From Escherichia coli (GTDB lineage Bacteria; Pseudomonadota; Gammaproteobacteria; Enterobacterales; Enterobacteriaceae), in NCBI RefSeq assembly GCF_013122565.1, contig NZ_CP053258.1: a stretch of DNA of 64,000 bases; one strand, given 5' to 3'. The notes beneath the pieces are model-generated. The model had not been told where the DNA came from, did no database searches, and saw only the letters and a program-made list of their open reading frames with translations. The position numbers and the translations under genes were made by a program. Below are positions 1 through 13,094 of the stretch, one piece after another (position 1 is the first letter of the stretch; the number at the start of each line of letters is the position of its first letter).

Positions 1-656
1 GTTTGCAAGGTCTGTACTGCGTTGCTTAAGCCGCCAGCGGCATGTACCACGCCAATAAGCAGCACAACGGTGCCAATCAGCATCACAAGCCCTTGCATGG
101 TGTCGTTCAGCACACTGGCGCGAAAGCCGCCAAAGGCGGTATACAACGCAATGCTGATACCAAAAATCAGCAGCCCGGTTTCATAAGGAATACCCGCCGC
201 GGTTTCCAGCAGGCGCGCACCGCCGATAAACTGCACGGTCATCGCACCAACGAACGCAACCAGCAAACTCAAACTCGCCAGCCACACCAGAAGACGACTC
301 TGGTAGCGGGCAAATAGCATATCGTTCAGCGTTACCGCATTGTAGCGACGCGCGAGAATCGCGAACTTCTTGCCGAGAATACCGAGCGAAAGCCAGACTG
401 CAGGAAGCTGAATCATCGCCAGCAATACCCAACCCAGCCCGTATTTATAAGCAGCTCCAGGCCCGCCGATAAACGAACTGGCACTGATATAGGTCGCGGT
501 GAGCGTCATCGCCAGCACAATACCGCCCATAGAGCGGCTGCCGAGGAAATACTCATTAAGGAAGGTGCCGGTGCTCCGTTTACGCATCGCATAAACAGAG
601 ATACCGAACACCACCACCAGATAGGCGACCAGCGGTAGAATTACTTCAAGCTGCAT
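1..656 (-). CDS. panF: Sodium/pantothenate symporter PanF, N-terminal part (gene continues past window start)
   Basis: Minus-strand translation from ATG at 654..656 gives MQLEVILPLVAYLVVVFGISVYAMRK..., an SSS-family transporter N-terminus; start overlaps yhdT 3' end; alternative in-frame ATG at 660..662. Not in ORF track because it runs off the edge. Confidence 0.9.
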   Translation of the reverse strand, partial: MQLEVILPLVAYLVVVFGISVYAMRKRSTGTFLNEYFLGSRSMGGIVLAMTLTATYISASSFIGGPGAAYKYGLGWVLLAMIQLPAVWLSLGILGKKFAILARRYNAVTLNDMLFARYQSRLLVWLASLSLLVAFVGAMTVQFIGGARLLETAAGIPYETGLLIFGISIALYTAFGGFRASVLNDTMQGLVMLIGTVVLLIGVVHAAGGLSNAVQTLQ

Positions 657-888
657 CGTCATCCTCCAGCGGGATATCGCGATAGATAAATCTCACCATC
701 GCCCAGCACAGGCCAATAAACAGCAGCGGCGTCAGAATGCAGGCCATCTCAAACCAGCGCGGAAAGCCGGTAAAACCGGGAGCAACGCCAGGTAAGTAAG
801 CGGCTACTAACCATACCGCCAGATACAAAAGGGTTAGCCCCAGCGCCCAGCGCGCCTCTTTATGAGCCTGAACAAAACGTGTGTCCAC
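646..888 (-). CDS. yhdT: Small inner-membrane protein YhdT (DUF997)
   Basis: 80-aa ORF with two hydrophobic segments; GTG start with GAGGAGG RBS upstream; overlaps panF start as in the yhdT-panF operon. Confidence 0.85.
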   Translation of the reverse strand: MDTRFVQAHKEARWALGLTLLYLAVWLVAAYLPGVAPGFTGFPRWFEMACILTPLLFIGLCWAMVRFIYRDIPLEDDDAA

Positions 889-980
889 GGAAGGTTTCCT
901 CCTCTCGGGGGGATACGAGAAACGGGCAATTCTACGGCAACTCTTCAGGCAGGGAAAATAATCTGACAGAAAATTGCCGT

Positions 981-1937
981 TCAGTGCTGCTGCAAAAAGT
1001 CTTCAATGTCAGCCAGTGAGGATATCCCTTCCATCGGACCTTGCCGCATTACGGCGAGCGCGCCGCTGGCATTTGCATATTGCAGTGCCTTATGTGCCGG
1101 GAAACCGGATAAGAAAAGAGTGATAAACGTTGCGCCAAAGCAGTCGCCTGCACCCGTTGGATCGATAATTTCGATATCGTGGCCTGTAACATGCTGGGCG
1201 TGTAATGTACCGTTTTTAAGCTTGTAATAGCTGGCCCCACGCTGGGCGCGTTTTATCGCCACATGTTTTACGCCGCCGTGGAGAAGATCGCTAACAATCT
1301 GTTCTTCTGACAGATTTTTGTGACGCGCGAAGAAAGGGAGTTCGCTTTCGCTGGGGATAAAAATATCCGTATATTCAATTAAATAATCGAGGGCCTGCGC
1401 CATTTCAGGAATGCTCAGCATCTCTTTGCGAATATTGGGATCGAAAGAAACGGTGCCGCCAGCCGATTTGATCGTCGTTATTGCTTTACGCATGACATCG
1501 ATCATGCGAAATGAGAACAACGATGAGCCCACAATATGGAGATGGTTACACTGTTTTAGCAGATCCTTATCAATGTGCTCAGCAGTAAACAAACCGCAGG
1601 CGCTGTTAGGGATATTAAAGACGAAATCCCGCTGCTGGGGATTTTGATAACTCACGAACGCCGTACCTGTGACGGCATTGTTCATAACATGGATCCCATC
1701 GGTAATGACACCTTCATGGCGGAGACGCTCTATAATGAGTCGGCCAAAATCATCATTACCAACACATCCAAAGAAGATGGCCCGATGGGACAGTTTTGCC
1801 ACCTGAGCAGCAAAAATTGCTGGCGCACCGCTGGGAAATGGCCCGATAAACTCCCCAGGCTGAGTGAATTTTTGATGTGGGTTGCGGGACAAAAACTCGG
1901 CCAGCAATTCGCCCATAGCGCAGATAGTTATTGTCAC
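981..1937 (-). CDS. PfkB-family carbohydrate kinase (island kinase 1)
   Basis: ORF 981..1991; probable GTG start at 1937 preceded by GAGAGGGG RBS (longest ORF would overlap the upstream regulator). Clear paralog of the kinase at 7472..8434 (shared blocks GPxPSGAPAIF, FDPNIRKEMLxIPEM, DPTGAGDCFG, ALQYANAxGALAVxRxGPMEG). Confidence 0.8.
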   Translation of the reverse strand: MTITICAMGELLAEFLSRNPHQKFTQPGEFIGPFPSGAPAIFAAQVAKLSHRAIFFGCVGNDDFGRLIIERLRHEGVITDGIHVMNNAVTGTAFVSYQNPQQRDFVFNIPNSACGLFTAEHIDKDLLKQCNHLHIVGSSLFSFRMIDVMRKAITTIKSAGGTVSFDPNIRKEMLSIPEMAQALDYLIEYTDIFIPSESELPFFARHKNLSEEQIVSDLLHGGVKHVAIKRAQRGASYYKLKNGTLHAQHVTGHDIEIIDPTGAGDCFGATFITLFLSGFPAHKALQYANASGALAVMRQGPMEGISSLADIEDFLQQH

Positions 1938-1947
1938 AAAACCCCTC

Positions 1948-2778
1948 TCATTCCTGAAGCCTTTCGCGATTGGACCAGGTAAAGCACTCATTACTGGTAT
2001 AAAGGATAACGAAATCAGCCGACTGCAATTGTTGCTGATATTGTTCGTTAATGCTGCGGCTGACGATCACATTTTCTGCCTGATGCAAATGCCCGATAGC
2101 AGCCGTTGATGGCGCAGGGTCGGCGGCAACGATAACTGTCTTATTCTGGGCATGATCGAAACAGAGCTGCCAGGCAGCGGCAAGTCTGGGAACGTTGATA
2201 TTTAAGGTACCATCAGCATCCAGAAGGCTGATTTCCAGAATGCTGTGTGTAATGGTGAAATGCTGAAGTGCCTGTTCGAGCGGTTTTCCGGCCAGTGCGG
2301 TGTCGGGGCGCAGCATTTCACTGCCAGCCAGTATTATTTCGCCATCAATAAACTGATTTGCCAGCAGCGCATGTTCGGGATCGTTGGTGATCAGACGCAG
2401 TTTTTTCACTTCGCTGAGCAAGGGAATGATCTTACGGCAGATTGTTCCATGTCCAAGAAATAGCGTGTCACGGTCGCGAATTAGCCGTGCGCAATGTCGT
2501 GCTATTTCCATTTGTTGTGCCAGAGACAATGGCGCGATCGGTTGTATCGCTTCTGGTTCAGAGGAGAGTGGTGTCGCAATAGCACCGCCAAATGATCGCT
2601 TTAAATATCCCTGTTGCTCCAGATAACTGAGATCGCCGCGGATCGTCACGCCAGAGACACCAAGTTGCGCAGATAAGTCATCAACTTTGATTTCACCCTG
2701 GGCGGCAACAATTTCTGCAATTTTTAATCTGCGTTTCAGTAGGTTAGACGATTTTCTCGGCACGTTAACACTCTTCAT
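1948..2778 (-). CDS. DeoR-family transcriptional regulator (HTH plus sugar-phosphate-binding domain)
   Basis: 276-aa ORF; N-terminal DeoR-type HTH (IAEIVAAQGEIKVDDLSAQLGVSGVTIRGDLSYLEQQGYLKR) followed by a DeoR C-terminal-like domain; directly upstream of kinase 1 on the same strand. Confidence 0.8.
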   Translation of the reverse strand: MKSVNVPRKSSNLLKRRLKIAEIVAAQGEIKVDDLSAQLGVSGVTIRGDLSYLEQQGYLKRSFGGAIATPLSSEPEAIQPIAPLSLAQQMEIARHCARLIRDRDTLFLGHGTICRKIIPLLSEVKKLRLITNDPEHALLANQFIDGEIILAGSEMLRPDTALAGKPLEQALQHFTITHSILEISLLDADGTLNINVPRLAAAWQLCFDHAQNKTVIVAADPAPSTAAIGHLHQAENVIVSRSINEQYQQQLQSADFVILYTSNECFTWSNRERLQE

Positions 2779-3974
<1,196 letters not shown>

Positions 3975-4009
3975 GACGTTGTACCCTACAAAAACAATGA
4001 GGATTGTTT

Positions 4010-4900
4010 ATGAAAAATATTAAATTACTTGGTTCAGCTATGTTGGTGAGCCTGGCATTGTTCTCGCAAAGTTCGTTGGCAAAAGAGTATAAAATTGGTG
4101 CGTCATTATTAACACAGCAACATCCTTTCTATATTGATCTTGCGAATGCCATGAAAGAAGAGGCAAAAAAAGACAATGTCAATTTAAGTGTCTCTATTGC
4201 CAATCAGGATTTAAACAAACAACTTTCTGATGTTGAGGATTTTATTACTAAAAAAGTGGATGCCATTATTATCTCTCCGGTCGATTCGAAAGGCGTCCAG
4301 GCGGCGATAATTAAAGCCGATAAGGCCGGTATTCCCGTTATCACCGTCGACGTCGCTGCGGAAGGCGTTCCGGTCGTATCGCATGTTGCGACCGATAACT
4401 ATGCGGGAGGCGTTGAAGCAGGCAAGTTAATGGGCAAACTTTTGAATGGTAAAGGTACTGTAGCCATTATTTCTTATCCGGCACTACAGTCGGTAGTTGC
4501 GCGCGTTGATGGTTTTAAGAAAGGGTTAAGCGATACTCCGGATATTAAAATTGTTGCTGAACAGCCTGGTATTACGCGGGCTGAAGCGTTAACGACTGCG
4601 CAAAACATTATGCAGGCAAATGCCAACCTGAATGGTCTGTTTGGCTTTGGTGATGATGCGGCGCTGGCAGCGGTTATCGCAGCGAAATCTGCGCATAACG
4701 ACAACATCAAAATCATTGGTTTTGACGGCATGAAAGAAGCGCGTGATGCCGTTGACAGTGAAAAAACGTTTGCGGCCGTGATTCGGCAATATCCCGATAA
4801 AATGGGTGCTAAAGCCATTGATGCCGCTGTTGATCACCTCAATGGTAAACCGGTAGAAAAAATGATCCCGGTACAACCCGGCGTTTATACAGGTAAATAG
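4010..4900 (+). CDS. Periplasmic sugar-binding protein of an ABC transporter (RbsB/PBP type-1 family)
   Basis: ATG at 4010 with GAGGA RBS (track ORF starts at TTG 4004); N-terminal signal peptide (LLGSAMLVSLALFSQSSLA); periplasmic-binding-protein type-1 fold signature by eye. Confidence 0.8.
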   Translation: MKNIKLLGSAMLVSLALFSQSSLAKEYKIGASLLTQQHPFYIDLANAMKEEAKKDNVNLSVSIANQDLNKQLSDVEDFITKKVDAIIISPVDSKGVQAAIIKADKAGIPVITVDVAAEGVPVVSHVATDNYAGGVEAGKLMGKLLNGKGTVAIISYPALQSVVARVDGFKKGLSDTPDIKIVAEQPGITRAEALTTAQNIMQANANLNGLFGFGDDAALAAVIAAKSAHNDNIKIIGFDGMKEARDAVDSEKTFAAVIRQYPDKMGAKAIDAAVDHLNGKPVEKMIPVQPGVYTGK

Positions 4901-4960
4901 TAAACATCTTCACCTCACAACAAAACGTTATTGGCGTTTTGTTGTGACACCGAGGTCATT

Positions 4961-6460
4961 ATGACGGATGTTATTCTTGATGTTTCGCATATTGCGAAGA
5001 CATTTGGTCATGTTCAGGCATTAAAAGATATTACCCTCTCTTTACGTAAAGGGCGGGTGCATACTTTATTAGGCGAGAATGGTGCCGGTAAATCGACATT
5101 AATGAAAATACTGGCCGGTGTTTATCCGCCAACCCAGGGAACGATAACACTACGTGGTGAAACCATCACCATTAATAATCCGCAGCATTCACGCCAGTTA
5201 GGGATTGCGATTATTTTTCAGGAACTGAGCCTGAGTAATAATATGACCGTGGCGGAAAATATTTATGCCAATAATGAACCGCGACGTTTTGGCATTATTA
5301 ACGATAAAAAAATGCTCGCAGATTGTCAGAATCTCCTTGCGGAACTGGGCATCCCACTGGATCCGCTAGAAATGGTCGGCAATATGTCGATGGCACATAG
5401 GCAACTGGTAGAAATTGCCAAAGCCTTAAGCTATGCAGCGGATGTCGTGATTATGGATGAACCGACATCTTCGCTAAGTGATAATGAAGCGGAGATTCTG
5501 TTTAACATTATTGAAAAATTAAAGCAGCGAGGCTGTGCGGTTATTTATATCTCTCATCGCATGGATGAAATTATGCGGATTTCAGATGATATTTCGGTGA
5601 TCCGCGACGGTGAGTATATCTCTACGCATGAAAAGAAAAACAGTGATATCCAGCATTTGATTGCCCAAATGGTTGGTCGGGAAATGAAAAATATTTGGCC
5701 AGCGCGTCTTGGGGAAAAACCGAATGAAAATGTTCCTGCAAAACTGGAAGTAAAAAATCTTTCCCATCCTTCGCTTTTTAAAGAGGTCAGTTTCGCTGTG
5801 CGTCCGGGGGAAGTCCTCGGATTTTTTGGCCTGGTGGGGGCCGGGCGTTCCGATGTGATGAAGGCGCTCTTTGGCCTCGTTTCGTATCACGGGACTGTGT
5901 TGATTGATGGTGAGGAAGTCAGGATCGCTAATCCTAAACAGGCTATTGATCATGACATTGCTTTTGTGACCGAAAACCGCAAGGAAGAAGGGTTAGTACT
6001 GATGCACGACGTCAATATGAACACGCACCATGTAGCGTTTCAATATAACGCTTCGCGGATGGGACTCATCAATCACCGACAAGAAGAGGCGAAGACGCTG
6101 CAATCAATTGCCAGAATGAACACTAAAGTGAGTTCTGTACATCAGGCAGTGGGAGCGCTGAGCGGCGGTAATCAACAGAAAATCGTGTTATCGAAGTGGC
6201 TGGAGAAAACTCCGCGTATTTTATTGCTCGATGAGCCAACGCGCGGAGTGGATGTAGGCGCAAAATTTGAAATCTATAACGTGATTCGTCAACTGGCTGC
6301 GGCAGGGACAGCAATTATTCTGGTGTCCTCTGAACTGCCAGAAGTCATGGCACTTAGCGATCGTCTGGTGGTAATGCGTAATAAAACGATTGCCGATATT
6401 TATTCATGTGAAAATTTAACGCAGACACAGGTAATGACCGCTGCAACAGGAGTACGTTAA
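4961..6460 (+). CDS. ABC transporter ATP-binding protein with duplicated ABC domains (RbsA/MglA-like)
   Basis: Walker A GENGAGKST, ABC signature LSGGNQQK, second Walker-A-like GLVGAGRS; ATG 4961 preceded by GAGG; about 499 aa, typical of sugar-importer ATPases. Confidence 0.85.
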   Translation: MTDVILDVSHIAKTFGHVQALKDITLSLRKGRVHTLLGENGAGKSTLMKILAGVYPPTQGTITLRGETITINNPQHSRQLGIAIIFQELSLSNNMTVAENIYANNEPRRFGIINDKKMLADCQNLLAELGIPLDPLEMVGNMSMAHRQLVEIAKALSYAADVVIMDEPTSSLSDNEAEILFNIIEKLKQRGCAVIYISHRMDEIMRISDDISVIRDGEYISTHEKKNSDIQHLIAQMVGREMKNIWPARLGEKPNENVPAKLEVKNLSHPSLFKEVSFAVRPGEVLGFFGLVGAGRSDVMKALFGLVSYHGTVLIDGEEVRIANPKQAIDHDIAFVTENRKEEGLVLMHDVNMNTHHVAFQYNASRMGLINHRQEEAKTLQSIARMNTKVSSVHQAVGALSGGNQQKIVLSKWLEKTPRILLLDEPTRGVDVGAKFEIYNVIRQLAAAGTAIILVSSELPEVMALSDRLVVMRNKTIADIYSCENLTQTQVMTAATGVR

Positions 6461-7450
6461 ATGACAGAGAAAACTCTTGCCAGTCCGAAACCTTCGGAAA
6501 TTCCCATTGCAAATAATTTTAAAAAAGTCTTCAGGCAATATGGCGGTATCCTCAGTGGAATGGTGGTGTTAATCATTCTGTTCAGTTTTATTAATGACAG
6601 TTTTTTTACCGCCAATAACATTACTAATATTATTCTTCAGGTTTCGATAATTGCAATTACCGCCTATGGAATGACTTATGTACTTTTGCTTGGCGATATT
6701 GATTTATCGGTCGGTTCAACCATTGCATTGATTGGCACATTTGCTGCGCTTGGGGCTTCATGGGGAATTCCATTTATTTTATTGGTCCCATTATCCATTA
6801 TTGCAGCACTGGCTCTGGGGATGATAAATGGTGGCTTGACGGCTATAGCGGGGATCCCCTCGTTTATTGTCACCGTTGCTACTATGGGGATCTTCCGTGG
6901 TATCGCTTATATCGTGACCGATGGTATGCCCATCATGATTAAAGATGATGCCTTTCTGGCGCTGGGGAATGGAGAATTTCTCTATATACCTATTCCTATC
7001 TGGATATTAATCATCTTATTGCTGATTAACCATTTCATTCTTACTAAAACAACCTTTGGACGAAAAATTTATATCACTGGTGGTAATAAAGAAGCGGCAG
7101 TTTATTCAGGGATAAATGTCACCCGCTTGAAAATTAAAGTCTTTATGATCACAGCCGTGCTGGCAGGTATCAGCGGGATGATCCTCGCCTCACGCCTCTA
7201 TTCCGGGCAACCGAATTCCGCGTTGAGCTACGAACTGGATGCTATTGCTGCGGCTGTACTGGGAGGCACCAGCCTGAACGGTGGCTATGGAACCGTGGTG
7301 GGGACGGTGATCGGCGCATTAACCATCGGCGTTATCAATAATGGCATGAACTTAATGAATGTTCCCTATTTTTACCAGATGGTGGTTAAAGGATTAGTCA
7401 TTCTTGTAGCCGTTTATTTTGACGTAAGAAATAAAAGAAAACGCAGCTAA
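6461..7450 (+). CDS. ABC transporter permease (RbsC-like)
   Basis: 329-aa highly hydrophobic multi-TM ORF; ATG immediately follows the ATPase stop (translational coupling). Confidence 0.8.
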   Translation: MTEKTLASPKPSEIPIANNFKKVFRQYGGILSGMVVLIILFSFINDSFFTANNITNIILQVSIIAITAYGMTYVLLLGDIDLSVGSTIALIGTFAALGASWGIPFILLVPLSIIAALALGMINGGLTAIAGIPSFIVTVATMGIFRGIAYIVTDGMPIMIKDDAFLALGNGEFLYIPIPIWILIILLLINHFILTKTTFGRKIYITGGNKEAAVYSGINVTRLKIKVFMITAVLAGISGMILASRLYSGQPNSALSYELDAIAAAVLGGTSLNGGYGTVVGTVIGALTIGVINNGMNLMNVPYFYQMVVKGLVILVAVYFDVRNKRKRS

Positions 7451-7471
7451 TCATTTCAAGGAATTAATCAT

Positions 7472-8434
7472 ATGAGTAAGGTCTTCACAATTGGAGAAAT
7501 TCTGGTTGAAATTATGGCGAGTAAAATCGGCCAGCCATTTGATCAACCAGGTATCTGGAACGGCCCTTATCCCAGTGGTGCGCCCGCTATTTTTATCGAC
7601 CAGGTGACACGTCTTGGCGTTCCGTGCGGCATCATTAGCTGTGTGGGGAATGATGGCTTTGGTGATATTAATATACATCGTCTGGCTGCTGACGGTGTGG
7701 ATATCAGGGGGATTTCAGTCTTACCTCTGGAAGCCACCGGGAGTGCCTTTGTTACTTATCATAACTCTGGCGATCGCGATTTTATTTTTAATATTAAGAA
7801 TGCCGCTTGCGGTAAATTATCGGCACAGCATGTTGATGAAAATATTCTGAAGGACTGTACCCATTTTCATATTATGGGCTCATCCCTGTTTTCGTTTCAT
7901 ATGGTAGACGCAGTAAAAAAAGCGGTAACCATCGTTAAAGCAAATGGTGGCGTTATTTCTTTCGACCCTAATATTCGAAAAGAGATGCTCGATATTCCAG
8001 AAATGCGTGACGCCCTTCACTTTGTTCTTGAGTTAACGGATATCTATATGCCCAGCGAGGGCGAAGTGTTGCTCTTGTCGCCACATTCGACGCCGGAGCG
8101 TGCAATCGCTGGTTTTCTTGAAGAAGGTGTTAAAGAGGTGATTGTGAAGCGCGGCAATCAAGGTGCCAGTTACTACTCCGCGAATGAGCAGTTTCATGTG
8201 AAGAGCTATCCGGTGGAAGAAGTTGACCCGACCGGTGCGGGAGACTGCTTTGGTGGCGCGTGGATTGCCTGCCGCCAGCTAGGGTTTGACGCCCATCGGG
8301 CATTACAATATGCCAACGCCTGCGGTGCACTGGCGGTAACCCGACGTGGCCCAATGGAGGGAACGTCTCGCCTTGCGGAAATCGAAGCGTTCATCCAGCG
8401 CCATGACATGTCCATTCGGGAAGCAGCACAATGA
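7472..8434 (+). CDS. PfkB-family carbohydrate kinase (island kinase 2)
   Basis: 320-aa ORF with PfkB motifs (DPTGAGDCFG, GG..N region); AAGGA RBS; paralog of kinase 1. Confidence 0.85.
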   Translation: MSKVFTIGEILVEIMASKIGQPFDQPGIWNGPYPSGAPAIFIDQVTRLGVPCGIISCVGNDGFGDINIHRLAADGVDIRGISVLPLEATGSAFVTYHNSGDRDFIFNIKNAACGKLSAQHVDENILKDCTHFHIMGSSLFSFHMVDAVKKAVTIVKANGGVISFDPNIRKEMLDIPEMRDALHFVLELTDIYMPSEGEVLLLSPHSTPERAIAGFLEEGVKEVIVKRGNQGASYYSANEQFHVKSYPVEEVDPTGAGDCFGGAWIACRQLGFDAHRALQYANACGALAVTRRGPMEGTSRLAEIEAFIQRHDMSIREAAQ

Positions 8435-9477
8435 AAAACGAAATTTGGTCGTGGATTGGCGATCTCTCGCAGGTTGCCGGAATTAAACACTATGAGTTAC
8501 GTAGTGGCAGAGCAAAGGGTACAGAAGCATTTGATGTCCGTACTGGTGCGGGACTGGCATTTACGGTGGTAAAAGATCGCGCGCTGGATATTGCATGGGC
8601 CAGCTACAAGGACACGGCGCTCTCTTTTATCACCCCCAACGGCATTGTCGCCCCCGCTTTTTTTGAGTCTCAGGGCAACGGATTTTTACGTAGCTTTTAC
8701 GCGGGGTTACTGACTACCTGCGGACTTAGCTACATTGGCACGCCCTGTGAGGATGAAGGAGAAACGCTGGGGTTACACGGGCGTTTGGCTGCGACTCCAG
8801 CAGAAGAGGTGGGGTATCGCACAGAACGGACCGACGACGGCATTGAATTTGTCATCAATGGCAAAGTACGGGAAACGCGATTGTTCGGTGAAAATCTGAC
8901 GCTGGAAAGGACCATTCGCTGCCGTTATGGCGAAAATGTGCTGCGCATTGAAGACAAGGTGACTAATCATGGTTTCACCCGCCAGCCGCTGCAAATTCTT
9001 TATCACTTTAATTACGGCTGGCCTTTATTATCGCCACAGGCAGAAATCTTGCTGTCGGCTAAAAGCGTAACGCCACGAACTCCGCATGCGGCGGAAGGGT
9101 TAACCAGTCATCTGGAGATTTGTACCCCACAGCCCGGTTTTGACGAGCAGGTTTACTATCTCACGTTGAATAGCGACAGTCAGGGGATGAGTAAAGTTGC
9201 GCTGGTGAACGCCGAACTGGGGTGGGGAATTTACGAGAAATTCGACACCATGCAGCTACCCAACTTTATCCAGTGGAAAAATTTAGGCGCGGGTGAATAT
9301 GTTATGGGACTGGAGGTCAGTAATAGTTTTCCTGACGGTCGTGATAAAGAACGAGCGCAGGGGCGTCTGCCCTTTATTGAGCCAGGGGAAACAAAGAAAT
9401 ACTGCTTTGAGCTGGGAATTGTTGATGGTGATGCTGAAATTAGCGCGTTGAAAGCGGAAATTGCAGGCTACCGTTAG
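8431..9477 (+). CDS. Conserved protein of unknown function, possibly aldose-epimerase-like fold (unverified)
   Basis: 348-aa ORF whose ATG overlaps the kinase 2 stop (ATGA), last gene of the + strand island operon; no transmembrane or signal features; family assignment is from memory only. Confidence 0.6.
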   Translation: MKNEIWSWIGDLSQVAGIKHYELRSGRAKGTEAFDVRTGAGLAFTVVKDRALDIAWASYKDTALSFITPNGIVAPAFFESQGNGFLRSFYAGLLTTCGLSYIGTPCEDEGETLGLHGRLAATPAEEVGYRTERTDDGIEFVINGKVRETRLFGENLTLERTIRCRYGENVLRIEDKVTNHGFTRQPLQILYHFNYGWPLLSPQAEILLSAKSVTPRTPHAAEGLTSHLEICTPQPGFDEQVYYLTLNSDSQGMSKVALVNAELGWGIYEKFDTMQLPNFIQWKNLGAGEYVMGLEVSNSFPDGRDKERAQGRLPFIEPGETKKYCFELGIVDGDAEISALKAEIAGYR

Positions 9478-9485
9478 CTAACGGC

Positions 9486-9521
9486 AATAAAAACGCCGGG
9501 CAGCGTTAACAGGCCCGGCGT
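9486..9521 (-). terminator. Rho-independent terminator downstream of accC (minus strand)
   Basis: GC stem CGCCGGGC / GCCCGGCG (9494..9501 and 9513..9520) followed on the minus strand by TTTTTATT; lies between accC and the island. Confidence 0.6.
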
Positions 9522-9567
9522 TGATTACGTTCTTTGCTAAGCGCGATGAACCACCGCGCGTCACAAA

Positions 9568-10917
9568 TTATTTTTCCTGAAGACCGAGTTTTTTCTCCAG
9601 ATAGTGGATGTTAGTGCCACCATGCTGGAAGTTCTCGTCATTCATGATGCGGATCTGCAGATCAACGTTGGTTTTGATACCGTCGATGATCAGCTCCTGC
9701 AGCGCATTCTTCATGCGGGCAATCGCCACGTCACGGTTTTCACCGTAGCAAATCAGCTTACCGATCATTGAGTCATAGTACGGCGGTACGGTGTAGCCCG
9801 CGTAGATATGAGACTCCCAACGTACGCCAAAACCGCCAGGTGCGTGGAAACGGGTGATTTTGCCCGGGCTTGGCAGGAAGGTGTTCGGATCTTCGGCGTT
9901 GATACGACATTCCACCGCATGGCCGCGAACGTGAACTTCTTCTTGCTTGATCGACAGCGGTTGACCGGCAGCGATACGCAGCTGTTCTTTGATCAGGTCA
10001 ACGCCGGTGATCATTTCTGTAACCGGGTGTTCTACCTGAATACGGGTGTTCATTTCGATGAAATAGAACTCGCCGTTTTCGAACAGGAACTCGAAAGTAC
10101 CTGCACCGCGATAGCCGATATCAACACACGCTTTAGCGCAACGTTCGCCGATGTAGCGACGCAGTTCCGGGGTAATGCCCGGTGCTGGTGCTTCTTCGAC
10201 CACTTTCTGGTGGCGGCGCTGCATGGAGCAGTCACGTTCCGCCAGATAGATAGCGTTGCCCTGACCGTCAGCCAGTACCTGAATCTCGACGTGGCGAGGA
10301 TTTTCCAGGTATTTCTCCATGTAAACCATATCGTTGCTGAAAGCAGCTTTCGCTTCCGCACGGGTCATGGAGATGGATTGTGCCAGTTCAGCGTCGCCGC
10401 GCACTACGCGCATACCGCGACCACCGCCGCCGCCGGAGGCTTTGATAATCACCGGATAACCAATGCGTTTAGCAATGGCACGGTTTTTATCCATATCGTC
10501 GCCCAGCGGGCCGTCAGAACCCGGTACGCAAGGGACGCCCGCTTTTTTCATCGCCGCGATTGCGGATACTTTGTCGCCCATCAGGCGAATGGTTTCTGCT
10601 TTCGGGCCAATGAAGATAAAGCCGGAGCGTTCAACCTGCTCTGCAAAGTTGGCGTTCTCGGAGAGGAAGCCGTAACCCGGATGGATTGCTACTGCGCCGG
10701 TGATTTCAGCGGCGCTGATGATTGCCGGGATGTTCAGATAACTTTTTACTGACGGAGCAGGGCCAATACAGACCGTTTCATCTGCCAGTAATACGTGTTT
10801 TAGATCGCGATCCGCGCTGGAGTGCACAGCGACAGTCTTGATGCCCAGTTCTTTACAGGCACGAAGAATACGCAATGCAATCTCGCCGCGGTTGGCAATA
10901 ACAATTTTATCCAGCAT
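9568..10917 (-). CDS. accC: Biotin carboxylase subunit of acetyl-CoA carboxylase
   Basis: 449-aa product [27 protein letters not shown]... recognisable as AccC; track ORF extends 13 codons upstream. Confidence 0.95.
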
Positions 10918-10927
10918 GTTCGCCTCG

Positions 10928-11398
10928 TTACTCGATGACGACCAGCGGCTCGTCAAATTCTACCGGTTGTCCACTTTCGACCAGAATTGCTTTCACGGTA
11001 CCGGATTTGTCCGCTTCGATCTGGTTCATCATTTTCATGGCTTCAACGATGCACAGGGTATCGCCCACGTTGACTTTCTGACCCACTTCGATGAACGCTT
11101 TTGCGTCCGGGCTTGGGGTGCGGTAGAAAGTACCAACCATCGGGGAGCGTACGATGTGACCACTGATTTCCGCTGCTGCTGGCGCTTCCATGGAAGGAAC
11201 GGTCGCCGGAGCGGCTGCGTTAGATTGAGCTGGCTGCTGCATCATTGGTGCAGCGTAAGCTTGTTGCATCACAGGGAAACTTGCGGCAGGAGCTGCACGG
11301 CTAATGCGTACTGACTCTTCGCCTTCAGAAATTTCCAGTTCGGAGATGCCTGATTCTTCAACCAGCTCGATCAGTTTTTTAATCTTACGAATATCCAT
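10928..11398 (-). CDS. accB: Biotin carboxyl carrier protein (BCCP)
   Basis: 156-aa product with Ala/Pro-rich linker and the biotinylation motif EAMKMMN. Confidence 0.95.
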
Positions 11399-12165
11399 GA
11401 GTGGGTTCCGTACTCTTTGTTTAGTGTGATTGTGACAGGCGTTTCACCGCCGTCTGTAAAGCGTATGCCCCGACAGCTGTATGCATAGCGATAAATTCCA
11501 GCAGGCCGGGACGCCGGTCTATTTTGCCCCAGAGTGTCAATGTTAGACTTGACGGACATTGTGCAGCGATCTGCTGCTATCCTCCGGCAAAAAACAAAAT
11601 ATACCTTCGTTGCGCCAATGTCACCTTTTCCGCAGCGCAAAAACTGCGTCAGGGAGGACGAGGTCGCACATTATAACGATTTCGTAGCAATTGGCAGCTA
11701 AATACTGGTCTTATCAGGGAAGATAATCAACAGCTAACATGTAAATAACCTTCAACACCGTGTAATTTGCAACAAGCCGCACAATTCACGAAATTAGCGC
11801 CATCATCGACGGAACTTCTTATAACGTAAGGTGAAAAGCTGTAAAGCCAGCCCTGCGAAGATGAGGGGCTGCAATGAGATAATCTTCACAGACCACAAAT
11901 AATGTAGGGATGCCAGGATCGCGACAAGATAGACGACATTACGCAGCGGTTGCTGGGGATTACCCAATTTTCACTGCATCGTCTGGATAGATGTGAATGC
12001 TAAAGCACGCAAAATTAACCGATTGACAATGCTCAGCATTAAATAGGTTCGAGTGATTAATTTGTAGTCAAACAAAATCAGATTATTCACCCCATTTTGC
12101 AGAAGGTAAACTGTTTTGTCAGGCGGCAGTGCGGCTATCTGATGCTTTCAGAATTTGCCACCTGA
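11399..12165 (-). promoter_or_regulatory. accBC promoter and long 5' leader region
   Basis: About 770 bp non-coding region upstream of accB with no convincing ORF; accB is known to have a long leader. Boundaries not mapped. Confidence 0.35.
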
Positions 12166-12200
12166 CAATAAAAAAGCCGATTTGGTAGCAAAATCGGCTT
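12166..12200 (-). terminator. Rho-independent terminator downstream of the 276-aa hypothetical gene (minus strand)
   Basis: Stem AGCCGATTT / AAATCGGCT (12175..12183 and 12191..12199) with a 7-nt loop, followed on the minus strand by TTTTTTAT. Confidence 0.55.
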
Positions 12201-12263
12201 CGGTGAGTTTGCGGCATTCATCACATACTCCGACAAGCTTTTTCAAGCATGACGGAGGTTGCG

Positions 12264-13094
12264 TTAATGCAAGGTTTCTACCCAGGGATAAAAGTGACCG
12301 TTACGGCGGATGAATATCTGTGTTGTCAGAGGATGGTCATCCTCACGGAAGCATTGTTCTGTTAACTGTCGTAATGCGCTGAGATTTGCTGGCTGATCAT
12401 TGTGGGTGAAAAACAGTTTTCCTCGGGAGGGAACAGTCACTAACAGGTCGCCGCATTCAGGATCGGGTGATTGCACCCAAAGATCGTCAATGAGCATCAG
12501 ACTGGGCTCATAAGTACCCCCTGCGGAGATAACGGCAACTTTTCCATCGTTTGCGCCTGTATCAACGATTTCAGCCGTAACTTCCGGCAATATTTGCTTC
12601 AAATTACTGATGGCTTGTTCGCGGTCAATGGTCACTTCGTAGCGCATCAGATAGCGCATGGTTTCGCTACCATCTTCAGCAAACAAGATAATTAACTCAT
12701 CGTTAAAGTCTTCCCAGGCAAAATCCAGCGAGGCGTTGAGGACCTCTGGATCAGACTCATACTGGCTAAGCTGTTGGCGAACGGTATCCAGCCAGGCTTT
12801 TTCTTTAATCACCGGAACAATACAGCGCCCGGTCGGCAGCATTTCTGCAAGCTGTTTCAGCATATCTGCAGCCACTTCTTGCAGCGGGTCTGGTGCGGCT
12901 TGATAACGTTTGTAGGCATCATCAAGGGTGATTTCCACCGTTTGGTGACCCGTATCAATGCGCATCAATTTATGGTCAGTCGAAATCATGACTTTCCAGT
13001 TTGGATGATGTTGTACAACTTCATGACCAAGATGTTCGACGAAAGCTGTCCGGCTAACCGCTTTTCCCGTTAACCGATTGAATAATGATTTCAA
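12264..13094 (-). CDS. Hypothetical protein, 276 aa, function unknown
   Basis: Long ORF downstream of acuI on the same strand; probable TTG start with GAGGG RBS; own terminator; no family recognised by eye. Confidence 0.6.
   Translation of the reverse strand: MKSLFNRLTGKAVSRTAFVEHLGHEVVQHHPNWKVMISTDHKLMRIDTGHQTVEITLDDAYKRYQAAPDPLQEVAADMLKQLAEMLPTGRCIVPVIKEKAWLDTVRQQLSQYESDPEVLNASLDFAWEDFNDELIILFAEDGSETMRYLMRYEVTIDREQAISNLKQILPEVTAEIVDTGANDGKVAVISAGGTYEPSLMLIDDLWVQSPDPECGDLLVTVPSRGKLFFTHNDQPANLSALRQLTEQCFREDDHPLTTQIFIRRNGHFYPWVETLH

Follow-up and report, generated by a model that had tools for sequence, protein, structure and literature searches.

The DNA analysed here, a stretch of 64,000 nucleotides from Escherichia coli to which we refer as the window, opens on two genes that share bases: the small gene yhdT runs into panF, whose predicted product is a pantothenate symporter, and the question is what, if anything, this arrangement does. 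An overlap as such matters little, such overlaps being common in bacterial operons, and the one between yhdT and panF is already known, both annotated and in print, is conserved across enterobacteria and is ordinary. We asked (i) how the junction is built and from where yhdT obtained its start region; (ii) whether panF is translationally coupled to yhdT, as the earlier note on this DNA had proposed; and (iii) whether YhdT may be a partner of PanF. The reading that we prefer as a whole, and to which we give a probability of about three in four, is an ordinary yhdT-panF(-prmA) junction with a coupled read-out, by which YhdT and PanF would be delivered together.

Layout of the yhdT-panF junction

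Both genes lie on the minus strand, where they share the stretch from 656 to 646, that is 11 nt, or 8 nt if the stop codon is not counted (Table 1). Read from this strand, the junction is ...CTG GAG GAT GAC G/ATG CAG CTT GA/A GTA, with slashes marking the ends of the overlap; the yhdT frame closes GAT GCA GCT TGA, the panF frame opens ATG CAG CTT GAA, and the yhdT TGA lies 8 nt past the panF ATG. The earlier note had placed the panF ATG (654..656) inside the last codons of yhdT and the yhdT stop at 646..648, and both placements are borne out when the minus strand is read; all the other coordinates and motifs that it gave are likewise correct. At this junction the ORF list contains no coding sequence on the opposite strand, and an Rfam search of positions 1..3000 returned no credible RNA family.

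The RefSeq annotation of K-12 has the same 11-nt overlap (yhdT 3407375..3407617, panF 3407607..3409058), its panF start being the base homologous to the start at 656..654 of the window. In five E. coli genomes that share the upstream island described below, yhdT and panF are annotated alike, and RefSeq gives yhdT the same frame and the same ends in K-12 and in genomes of this island type. Côté et al. (2016; PMC5120140), where their article turns to this gene pair, also describe panF and yhdT as overlapping, by a stated 10 nt.

Table 1. Features of the yhdT-panF region, with coordinates in the window
Feature	Coordinates	Strand	Remarks
panF, 5' part	1..656	minus	First 218 codons, the gene running past the window start; SSS-family sodium/pantothenate symporter
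Overlap, ATGCAGCTTGA	646..656	minus	Read twice: yhdT ...D-A-A-stop, panF M-Q-L-E...
yhdT CDS	888..646	minus	80 aa plus stop; DUF997 small inner-membrane protein
yhdT stop, TGA	648..646	minus	TGA in 83/83 loci
panF start, ATG	656..654	minus	ATG in 81/83 and GTG in 2/83 loci, at exactly this position
Second in-frame ATG	662..660	minus	Precedes the panF start by two codons; directly against GGAGG, with zero spacing
panF Shine-Dalgarno, GGAGG	667..663	minus	Within yhdT codons 74-76 (Leu74-Glu75-Asp76), 6 nt before the ATG
yhdT start, GTG	888..886	minus	Of 83 loci, 78 have ATG and 4 have GTG here; one is cut off at its start
yhdT Shine-Dalgarno, GAGGAGG	904..898	minus	9 nt upstream of the GTG; anti-SD duplex -12.0 kcal/mol
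Spacer, tagatose-kinase stop to yhdT	889..980	minus	92 nt; from alignments
D-tagatose utilisation island	889..9567		8,679 bp; replaces the whole accC-yhdT spacer

YhdT matches Pfam PF06196 (DUF997) over residues 7-77 of its 80 (E 3.7e-28, 97.7 bits, cut-off 26.3) and NCBIfam NF007918 over its full length (residues 1-80, 167.5 bits, cut-off 107), and it is 97.5% identical to K-12 YhdT. It contains two hydrophobic helices, at about residues 14-32 and 46-66, the Kyte-Doolittle means over 17 residues being 1.6-2.2 across residues 12-39 and 45-69. The DUF997 family comprises 99 clusters at 50% identity and reaches down to 32% identity, with E11, W26, P43, W45, C50 and L74 near-invariant.

The 218-residue fragment of PanF that lies in the window, whose translation from the ATG at 656..654 begins MQLEVILPLVAYL..., passes the equivalog cut-off of the TIGR02119 panF model even as a partial protein (340.9 bits against 328.05), matches PF00474, the SSS family, with an E-value of 6.8e-64, and is 100% identical to the same part of K-12 PanF. 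This identity, together with the panF genetics in PMC5120140, suggests that the PanF of the window is a pantothenate transporter. The PDB holds neither a solved structure nor a relative for YhdT, and no solved structure of PanF itself.

The panF Shine-Dalgarno sequence is strong and well spaced, its duplex with the anti-SD amounting to -9.3 kcal/mol with a spacer of 6 nt. If panF truly started elsewhere, at the ATG at 662..660 or downstream at Met24, the overlap would be 17 nt or none, which we consider highly improbable. The upstream ATG is indeed in frame, certain species have an ATG just before the annotated panF ATG (for example ...GACGATGATGCAG...), and the RefSeq protein record of panF has reached version 4. 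However, the ATG at 662..660 abuts the Shine-Dalgarno sequence without a spacer and is missing from many species (for example ...GGAGGATAACGATG...), and it was rejected as the panF start; only the position 656..654 is a start codon in every one of the 83 loci compared, including the two in which ATG has changed to GTG. A start at Met24 would lose the first helix of PanF, whereas the match to the TIGR02119 profile already begins at residue 4, which falls onto profile position 2.

A D-tagatose island upstream of yhdT

The earlier note had further held that yhdT begins at a GTG behind a GAGGAGG ribosome-binding site. This is so in the window but not for E. coli generally, as K-12 and 4004 of 5426 genomes have an ATG at this position, preceded by a weak Shine-Dalgarno sequence. 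In the window, GAGGAGG occurs four times on the two strands of the 64 kb, and the odds that it stands by chance at the ribosome-binding position of a given start codon are about 3 in 10,000. Ahead of the GTG, the yhdT frame extends without a stop over at least 37 codons, none of which is ATG, GTG or TTG, so that the GTG is the only canonical start; the next in-frame start, a TTG at codon 21, would cost YhdT its first transmembrane helix. In the other island-type E. coli that were sampled, an ATG occurs in frame six codons before the GTG (CCATGAGGAGG); in the window this codon reads GAG, which supports the GTG as the working yhdT start.

How the region came to differ between strains is evident from BLAST comparison with K-12, in which positions 4377..5263 of the K-12 locus sequence (L002) align with 887..1 of the window, and 1740..4267 with 12095..9568. 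Homology to K-12 thus starts with base 2 of the yhdT start codon (L002 4377, window 887), the break being at base 1, and on the other side it runs to the final base of the accC stop codon (L002 4267, window 9568). The K-12 spacer between accC and yhdT, which is 108 nt long and carries the accC terminator, is replaced in the window by the island, which supplies the yhdT leader, the ribosome-binding site and the G of the GTG. The genes themselves (b3257 and b3258 in K-12 MG1655), the 11-nt overlap, the Shine-Dalgarno sequence within yhdT and prmA downstream are the same in both; K-12 differs in that yhdT starts with ATG after CAGGGACAAAAA, in a weak, A-rich leader with an anti-SD duplex of -4.8 kcal/mol, while in the window the GTG follows ...GAGAGGAGGAAACCTTCC at the end of the 8.7-kb island.

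The island encodes a DeoR regulator, a tagatose kinase, a GatY-type aldolase, an ABC transporter and an epimerase. Among NCBIfam models, that of the aldolase scores 528.8 bits and a DeoR/AgaR-like regulator is present; the tagatose-kinase model matches with an E-value of 1e-103, yet stays below its equivalog cut-off (346 vs 420). In the portion of their article that concerns the tag (D-tagatose) cluster of EcN, Ha et al. (2022; PMC9720028) describe it as located between accC and yhdT, and the island fits this cluster both in position, flanked by the accC stop (9568) and the yhdT start, and in gene content.

The junction is of the island type in 1,421 (26%) and of the K-12 type in 4,004 (74%) of 5,426 complete E. 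coli genomes. An ATG start lying 105-115 nt beyond accC is found in E. albertii, E. whittamii, Citrobacter, Salmonella diarizonae, Enterobacter and most others; as most outgroups have the ATG, with a weak ribosome-binding site, this form is ancestral. Hence the GTG of yhdT and its strong GAGGAGG are not ancestral but arrived with the D-tagatose island; in genomes lacking it, yhdT begins with ATG and its leader is A-rich and weak. A related DeoR-kinase cluster adjoins yhdT in Trabulsiella and Superficieibacter, and in Trabulsiella both ATG and GTG occur at the yhdT start position.

Within the 92-nt spacer on the island side of yhdT, the block 940..918 (TTGCCGTAGAATTGCCCGTTTCT) is conserved with Trabulsiella, while the spacer as a whole has no significant similarity to the 108-nt spacer of K-12. 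An apparent remnant of homology between the K-12 and island leaders (GTAcAATcCCCGcTTTCT and GTAgAATTGCCCGTTTCT) was rejected, as p values of about 0.2-0.7 resulted when the local alignment was compared with 2000 dinucleotide shuffles. Simple consensus scans of both types of leader turned up no sigma-70 promoter ahead of yhdT, and no terminator was seen in the island-side spacer. Taken together, we have very little doubt that the anatomy of the junction, the identities of the genes and the history of the yhdT alleles are as described.

Conservation of the overlap in close and distant loci

A genome scan (10-sequence alignment) gave 80 species representatives, mostly Enterobacteriaceae. The loci compared number 83, namely the window, three E. 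coli genomes and 79 representatives of other species, again mostly Enterobacteriaceae. The overlap is 11 nt long in all 83, and the flanking spacers vary, from 93 to 8679 nt between accC and yhdT and from 10 to 92 nt between panF and prmA. The sequence before the panF start, CTGGAGGA (TTGGAGGA in four loci), is effectively invariant, synonymous sites included. The codon of Glu75 is GAG throughout, by which the panF Shine-Dalgarno sequence is kept. Codon 3 of panF takes ten forms, all of them NNT, and this third-base T keeps the yhdT TGA; the codon of PanF Glu4 is GAA, GAG or GAT in every locus, and no 3-nt indel shifts the yhdT stop in any of them.

These comparative data are consistent with a conserved and selected arrangement. 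The fixed geometry could nonetheless be explained in large part by dual-coding constraint, as the GA of the TGA is set by Glu4 of PanF and no indel would leave both frames whole.

Nine distant DUF997 proteins, with 32-46% identity, were followed back to the contigs that encode them. Each of the nine genes lies directly upstream of an SSF (SSS-family) gene on the same strand; the SSF gene is complete in six cases, and in five of these six it scores above the TIGR02119 panF cut-off. In three of the nine loci the pair stays joined although it is away from the accBC/prmA neighbourhood. Together with the close loci, the DUF997 gene is thus upstream of and adjoining the symporter gene in 83/83 close and 9/9 distant cases. 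As called, seven of the nine distant pairs overlap, by 11, 11, 4, 4, 4, 4 and 1 nt. An eighth, L085, was called with an 8-nt gap, but the call is probably wrong and the true junction a 4-nt ATGA overlap, as an upstream ATG yields the usual MNPA... N-terminus; in the ninth, L086, a real gap of 43 nt separates the DUF997 gene from the SSF gene.

Translational coupling and a possible YhdT-PanF partnership

The junction has the layout of a coupled pair: both genes are on the same strand, the stop lies within about 10 nt of the start, and the downstream Shine-Dalgarno sequence is inside the upstream ORF. The pairs trpE-trpD and trpB-trpA, for which coupling has been proven experimentally, overlap by 1 nt (TGATG); they resemble yhdT-panF in that the stop is within a few nucleotides of the start and the downstream Shine-Dalgarno sequence lies in the upstream ORF. 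They differ from yhdT-panF in the length of the overlap, 1 nt as opposed to 11 nt, and in that coupling is experimental for the trp pairs and predicted from sequence for yhdT-panF.

On this layout, translational coupling of panF to yhdT is plausible and, in our estimate, somewhat more likely than not. The two genes would be carried on one mRNA, as annotation and overlap suggest, and ribosomes that end yhdT translation at the TGA would be released 8 nt past the panF ATG, beside a strong Shine-Dalgarno sequence. Either these ribosomes or fresh 30S subunits caught by the exposed GGAGG might then initiate panF, and PanF output would in this way be tied to YhdT output, two membrane proteins being delivered together.

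RNA structure that would mask the panF start was not detected: the fold of the single sequence is not significant (z -0.41), and the RNAalifold consensus over 22 species is weak, at -5.8 kcal/mol. A candidate 9-bp helix, in which 667..658 would pair with panF codons 10-13 (629..620) and mask the Shine-Dalgarno sequence, was rejected, since neither its pairing nor its covariation is above that of shuffled controls (27/500 for the covariation).

The overlap might instead be incidental compaction, with panF initiating independently, the dual-coded bases being hard to change and coupling not selected. We regard this as rather unlikely, though it has to be taken seriously. A Shine-Dalgarno sequence of the strength and spacing given above, with no significant structure masking it, makes independent initiation fully possible; the TGA is held in place by the codon of PanF Glu4 together with a single third-position T; and one distant pair is separated by the 43-nt gap. 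On the other hand, the first two bases of panF codon 3 vary freely while the third is T in all 83 close loci, and the stop has never been moved by a 3-nt indel. Seven of the nine distant pairs, and probably eight, overlap despite unrelated junction sequences, and in the results that Côté et al. (PMC5120140) present on these genes, deletion of yhdT phenocopies deletion of panF.

That yhdT is only a translated leader ORF, with the sole role of regulating panF and no functional protein product, would agree with the fact that YhdT is without a demonstrated function: in the literature searched, the 13 papers that name yhdT describe none for the E. coli protein, and the PDB offers no structure or relative. 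Yet its sequence is kept as a Pfam and NCBIfam family, with matches as strong and a spread of identities as wide as given above, and with near-invariant residues and two clear hydrophobic helices. An ORF that was nothing but a leader would not retain its amino acid sequence over such distances, which counts against a leader-only role; we consider it very improbable.

Returning to a coupled read-out that delivers both proteins, the question is what YhdT would do for PanF. In the synthetic-lethality results of PMC5120140 that bear on these genes, the deletions of yhdT and panF were, besides those of recA/recC, the only ones synthetic-lethal with all of panB, panC, panD and panZ; the recA/recC results were put down to poor conjugation and recombination, and the yhdT-deletion result was ascribed by the authors to disruption of panF. 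The yhdT phenotype therefore does not tell coupling from polarity, or either of them from a genuine requirement for YhdT. The way in which DUF997 always accompanies panF, together with the phenotype common to the two deletions, tentatively suggests that YhdT is a working or required partner of PanF.

Small proteins encoded beside SSS symporters have parallels. The gene yjcH (DUF485) resembles yhdT in being a small two-helix gene directly upstream of, and overlapping, an SSS gene, in this case actP, which encodes an acetate/glycolate symporter; it differs in the overlap, which is 4 nt in K-12 as opposed to 11 nt for yhdT-panF, and in the substrate. Comparison of YhdT/DUF997 with YjcH/DUF485 by hhalign gave a probability of 3.7%, that is, no detectable homology. 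In the results of a preprint on mutant fitness that deal with these families (bioRxiv 10.1101/072470), DUF485 and DUF4212 small proteins are required by the adjoining SSS symporters. The DUF4212 proteins (TIGR03647), which accompany SSS transporters of the VC_2705 type (TIGR03648), are likewise encoded just upstream as small hydrophobic proteins and are curated as a small subunit with cofitness backing. DUF4212 is another family than DUF997, weak DUF4212 matches being found in 3/37 DUF997 members (best E 0.0027); the TIGR03648 large-subunit model appears among the weak matches of PanF.

A further analogy is offered by SGLT2, a detectable relative of PanF. In the human SGLT2-MAP17 complex (PDB 7vsi), an SSS-family transporter works with a small accessory membrane protein (MAP17). 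It differs from PanF/YhdT in being eukaryotic, with unlinked genes and an unrelated accessory protein, and is an analogy only. By comparison with DUF485 and DUF4212, PanF may depend on YhdT (DUF997) as an obligatory small subunit or a partner in assembly, and DUF997 would then represent a third, unrelated two-helix family of SSS partners; we put the chances of this at somewhat below even.

If this is true, the conserved overlap would serve the joint production of YhdT and PanF, and the synthetic lethality of yhdT with pantothenate-biosynthesis mutants would reflect a real need for YhdT and not damage to panF. The pairing of DUF997 with panF over very distant bacteria and the common deletion phenotype make a testable case that YhdT serves PanF, and if it does, this bears on the reconstitution or engineering of pantothenate transport. 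For E. coli itself, start-site or expression data on yhdT from K-12 have to be read with the knowledge that a quarter of the genomes of the species carry another leader, ribosome-binding site and start codon. E. coli with the D-tagatose island, 26% of the genomes, drive yhdT and, via coupling, would drive panF from this different leader, so that their pantothenate uptake may differ.

Two forms of the yhdT leader in E. coli

Two forms of the leader preceding yhdT were found among 5,426 complete E. coli genomes, of which 4,004 start the gene at an ATG behind a weak, A-rich leader, as in E. coli K-12 MG1655 (K-12), while 1,421 have the junction that accompanies the D-tagatose island inserted between accC and yhdT (island-type genomes). 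All six island-type genomes sampled begin yhdT at a GTG preceded by AGGAGG (window 886..906). The consulted passages of the tagatose-island paper make no mention of this start-codon and ribosome-binding-site difference.

Relative to K-12, the island replaces the whole accC–yhdT spacer (see the table), and, as far as the alignment resolves, the homology with K-12 breaks precisely at gene boundaries, at the final base of the accC stop codon on one side and at base 1 of the yhdT start codon on the other. A hairpin followed by a T-run, new with the island, lies 3' of accC at about 9519..9491. Cedecea colo (L058; L-numbers denote the genome records compared) is also among the genomes having other insertions in this spacer.

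Coordinates of features in and around the accC–yhdT–panF region
Feature	Position	Strand	Remark
D-tagatose island, 8.7 kb	889..9567		junctions 888/889 and 9567/9568; whole accC–yhdT spacer replaced
23-nt block TTGCCGTAGAATTGCCCGTTTCT	918..940	minus	identical in island-type E. coli and in three genomes of Trabulsiella; flanks diverged
Candidate 9-bp helix, panF Shine-Dalgarno region with panF codons 10–13	658..667 paired with 620..629	minus	
276-aa ORF	12264..13094	minus	at yrdF/yrdE site

Start signals of yhdT and panF

In other island-type E. coli and in Trabulsiella, an in-frame ATG that overlaps the Shine-Dalgarno sequence (CCATGAGGAGG) is located six codons 5' of the yhdT GTG (L001, 6195..6197; L007; L097–L100), and some gene callers therefore report an 86-aa form of yhdT in these genomes. 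The window has GAG at this site (904..906). Further upstream, the conserved 23-nt block includes a -10-like TAGAAT (934..929) and may serve as the yhdT promoter in strains with the island; a simple promoter scan called no promoter at the block.

The panF start codon is GTG rather than ATG, at an unchanged position, in Pseudenterobacter timonensis (L049) and Entomohabitans teleogrylli (L070), junction near 3233, and both retain the 11-nt overlap with yhdT despite this change. The candidate helix involving the panF Shine-Dalgarno region was not supported: it could be formed in 94% of cells (22 species), which is no better than in shuffled controls.

Divergence of the window and insertions in the accC–yhdT spacer

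For the window stretches tested, the top identity of complete E. coli genomes was at most 98.9%, and the best match to the 121-nt yhdT junction among complete genomes was no higher than 95.9%. Across yhdT and the 5' part of panF (1..888), the window departs from both K-12 and an O8:H8 strain at 22–27 of 888 positions, while these two differ from each other at only nine; accBC, unlike this region, is 99.7% identical to K-12. The source belongs to a lineage that complete E. coli assemblies do not represent, possibly Shigella or an unsampled clade. The window is also about 750 bp longer than K-12 (12096..12951) at the site of the K-12 yrdF/yrdE pseudogene fragments, and the 276-aa ORF found there had no NCBIfam match.

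Insertions in the accC–yhdT spacer were also identified outside E. coli, comprising a 667-aa ORF in S. enterica subsp. arizonae (L009), about 1.8 kb in Citrobacter amalonaticus (L023), and a tag-like cluster in Superficieibacter (L045). The spacer looks like a recurrent integration spot.
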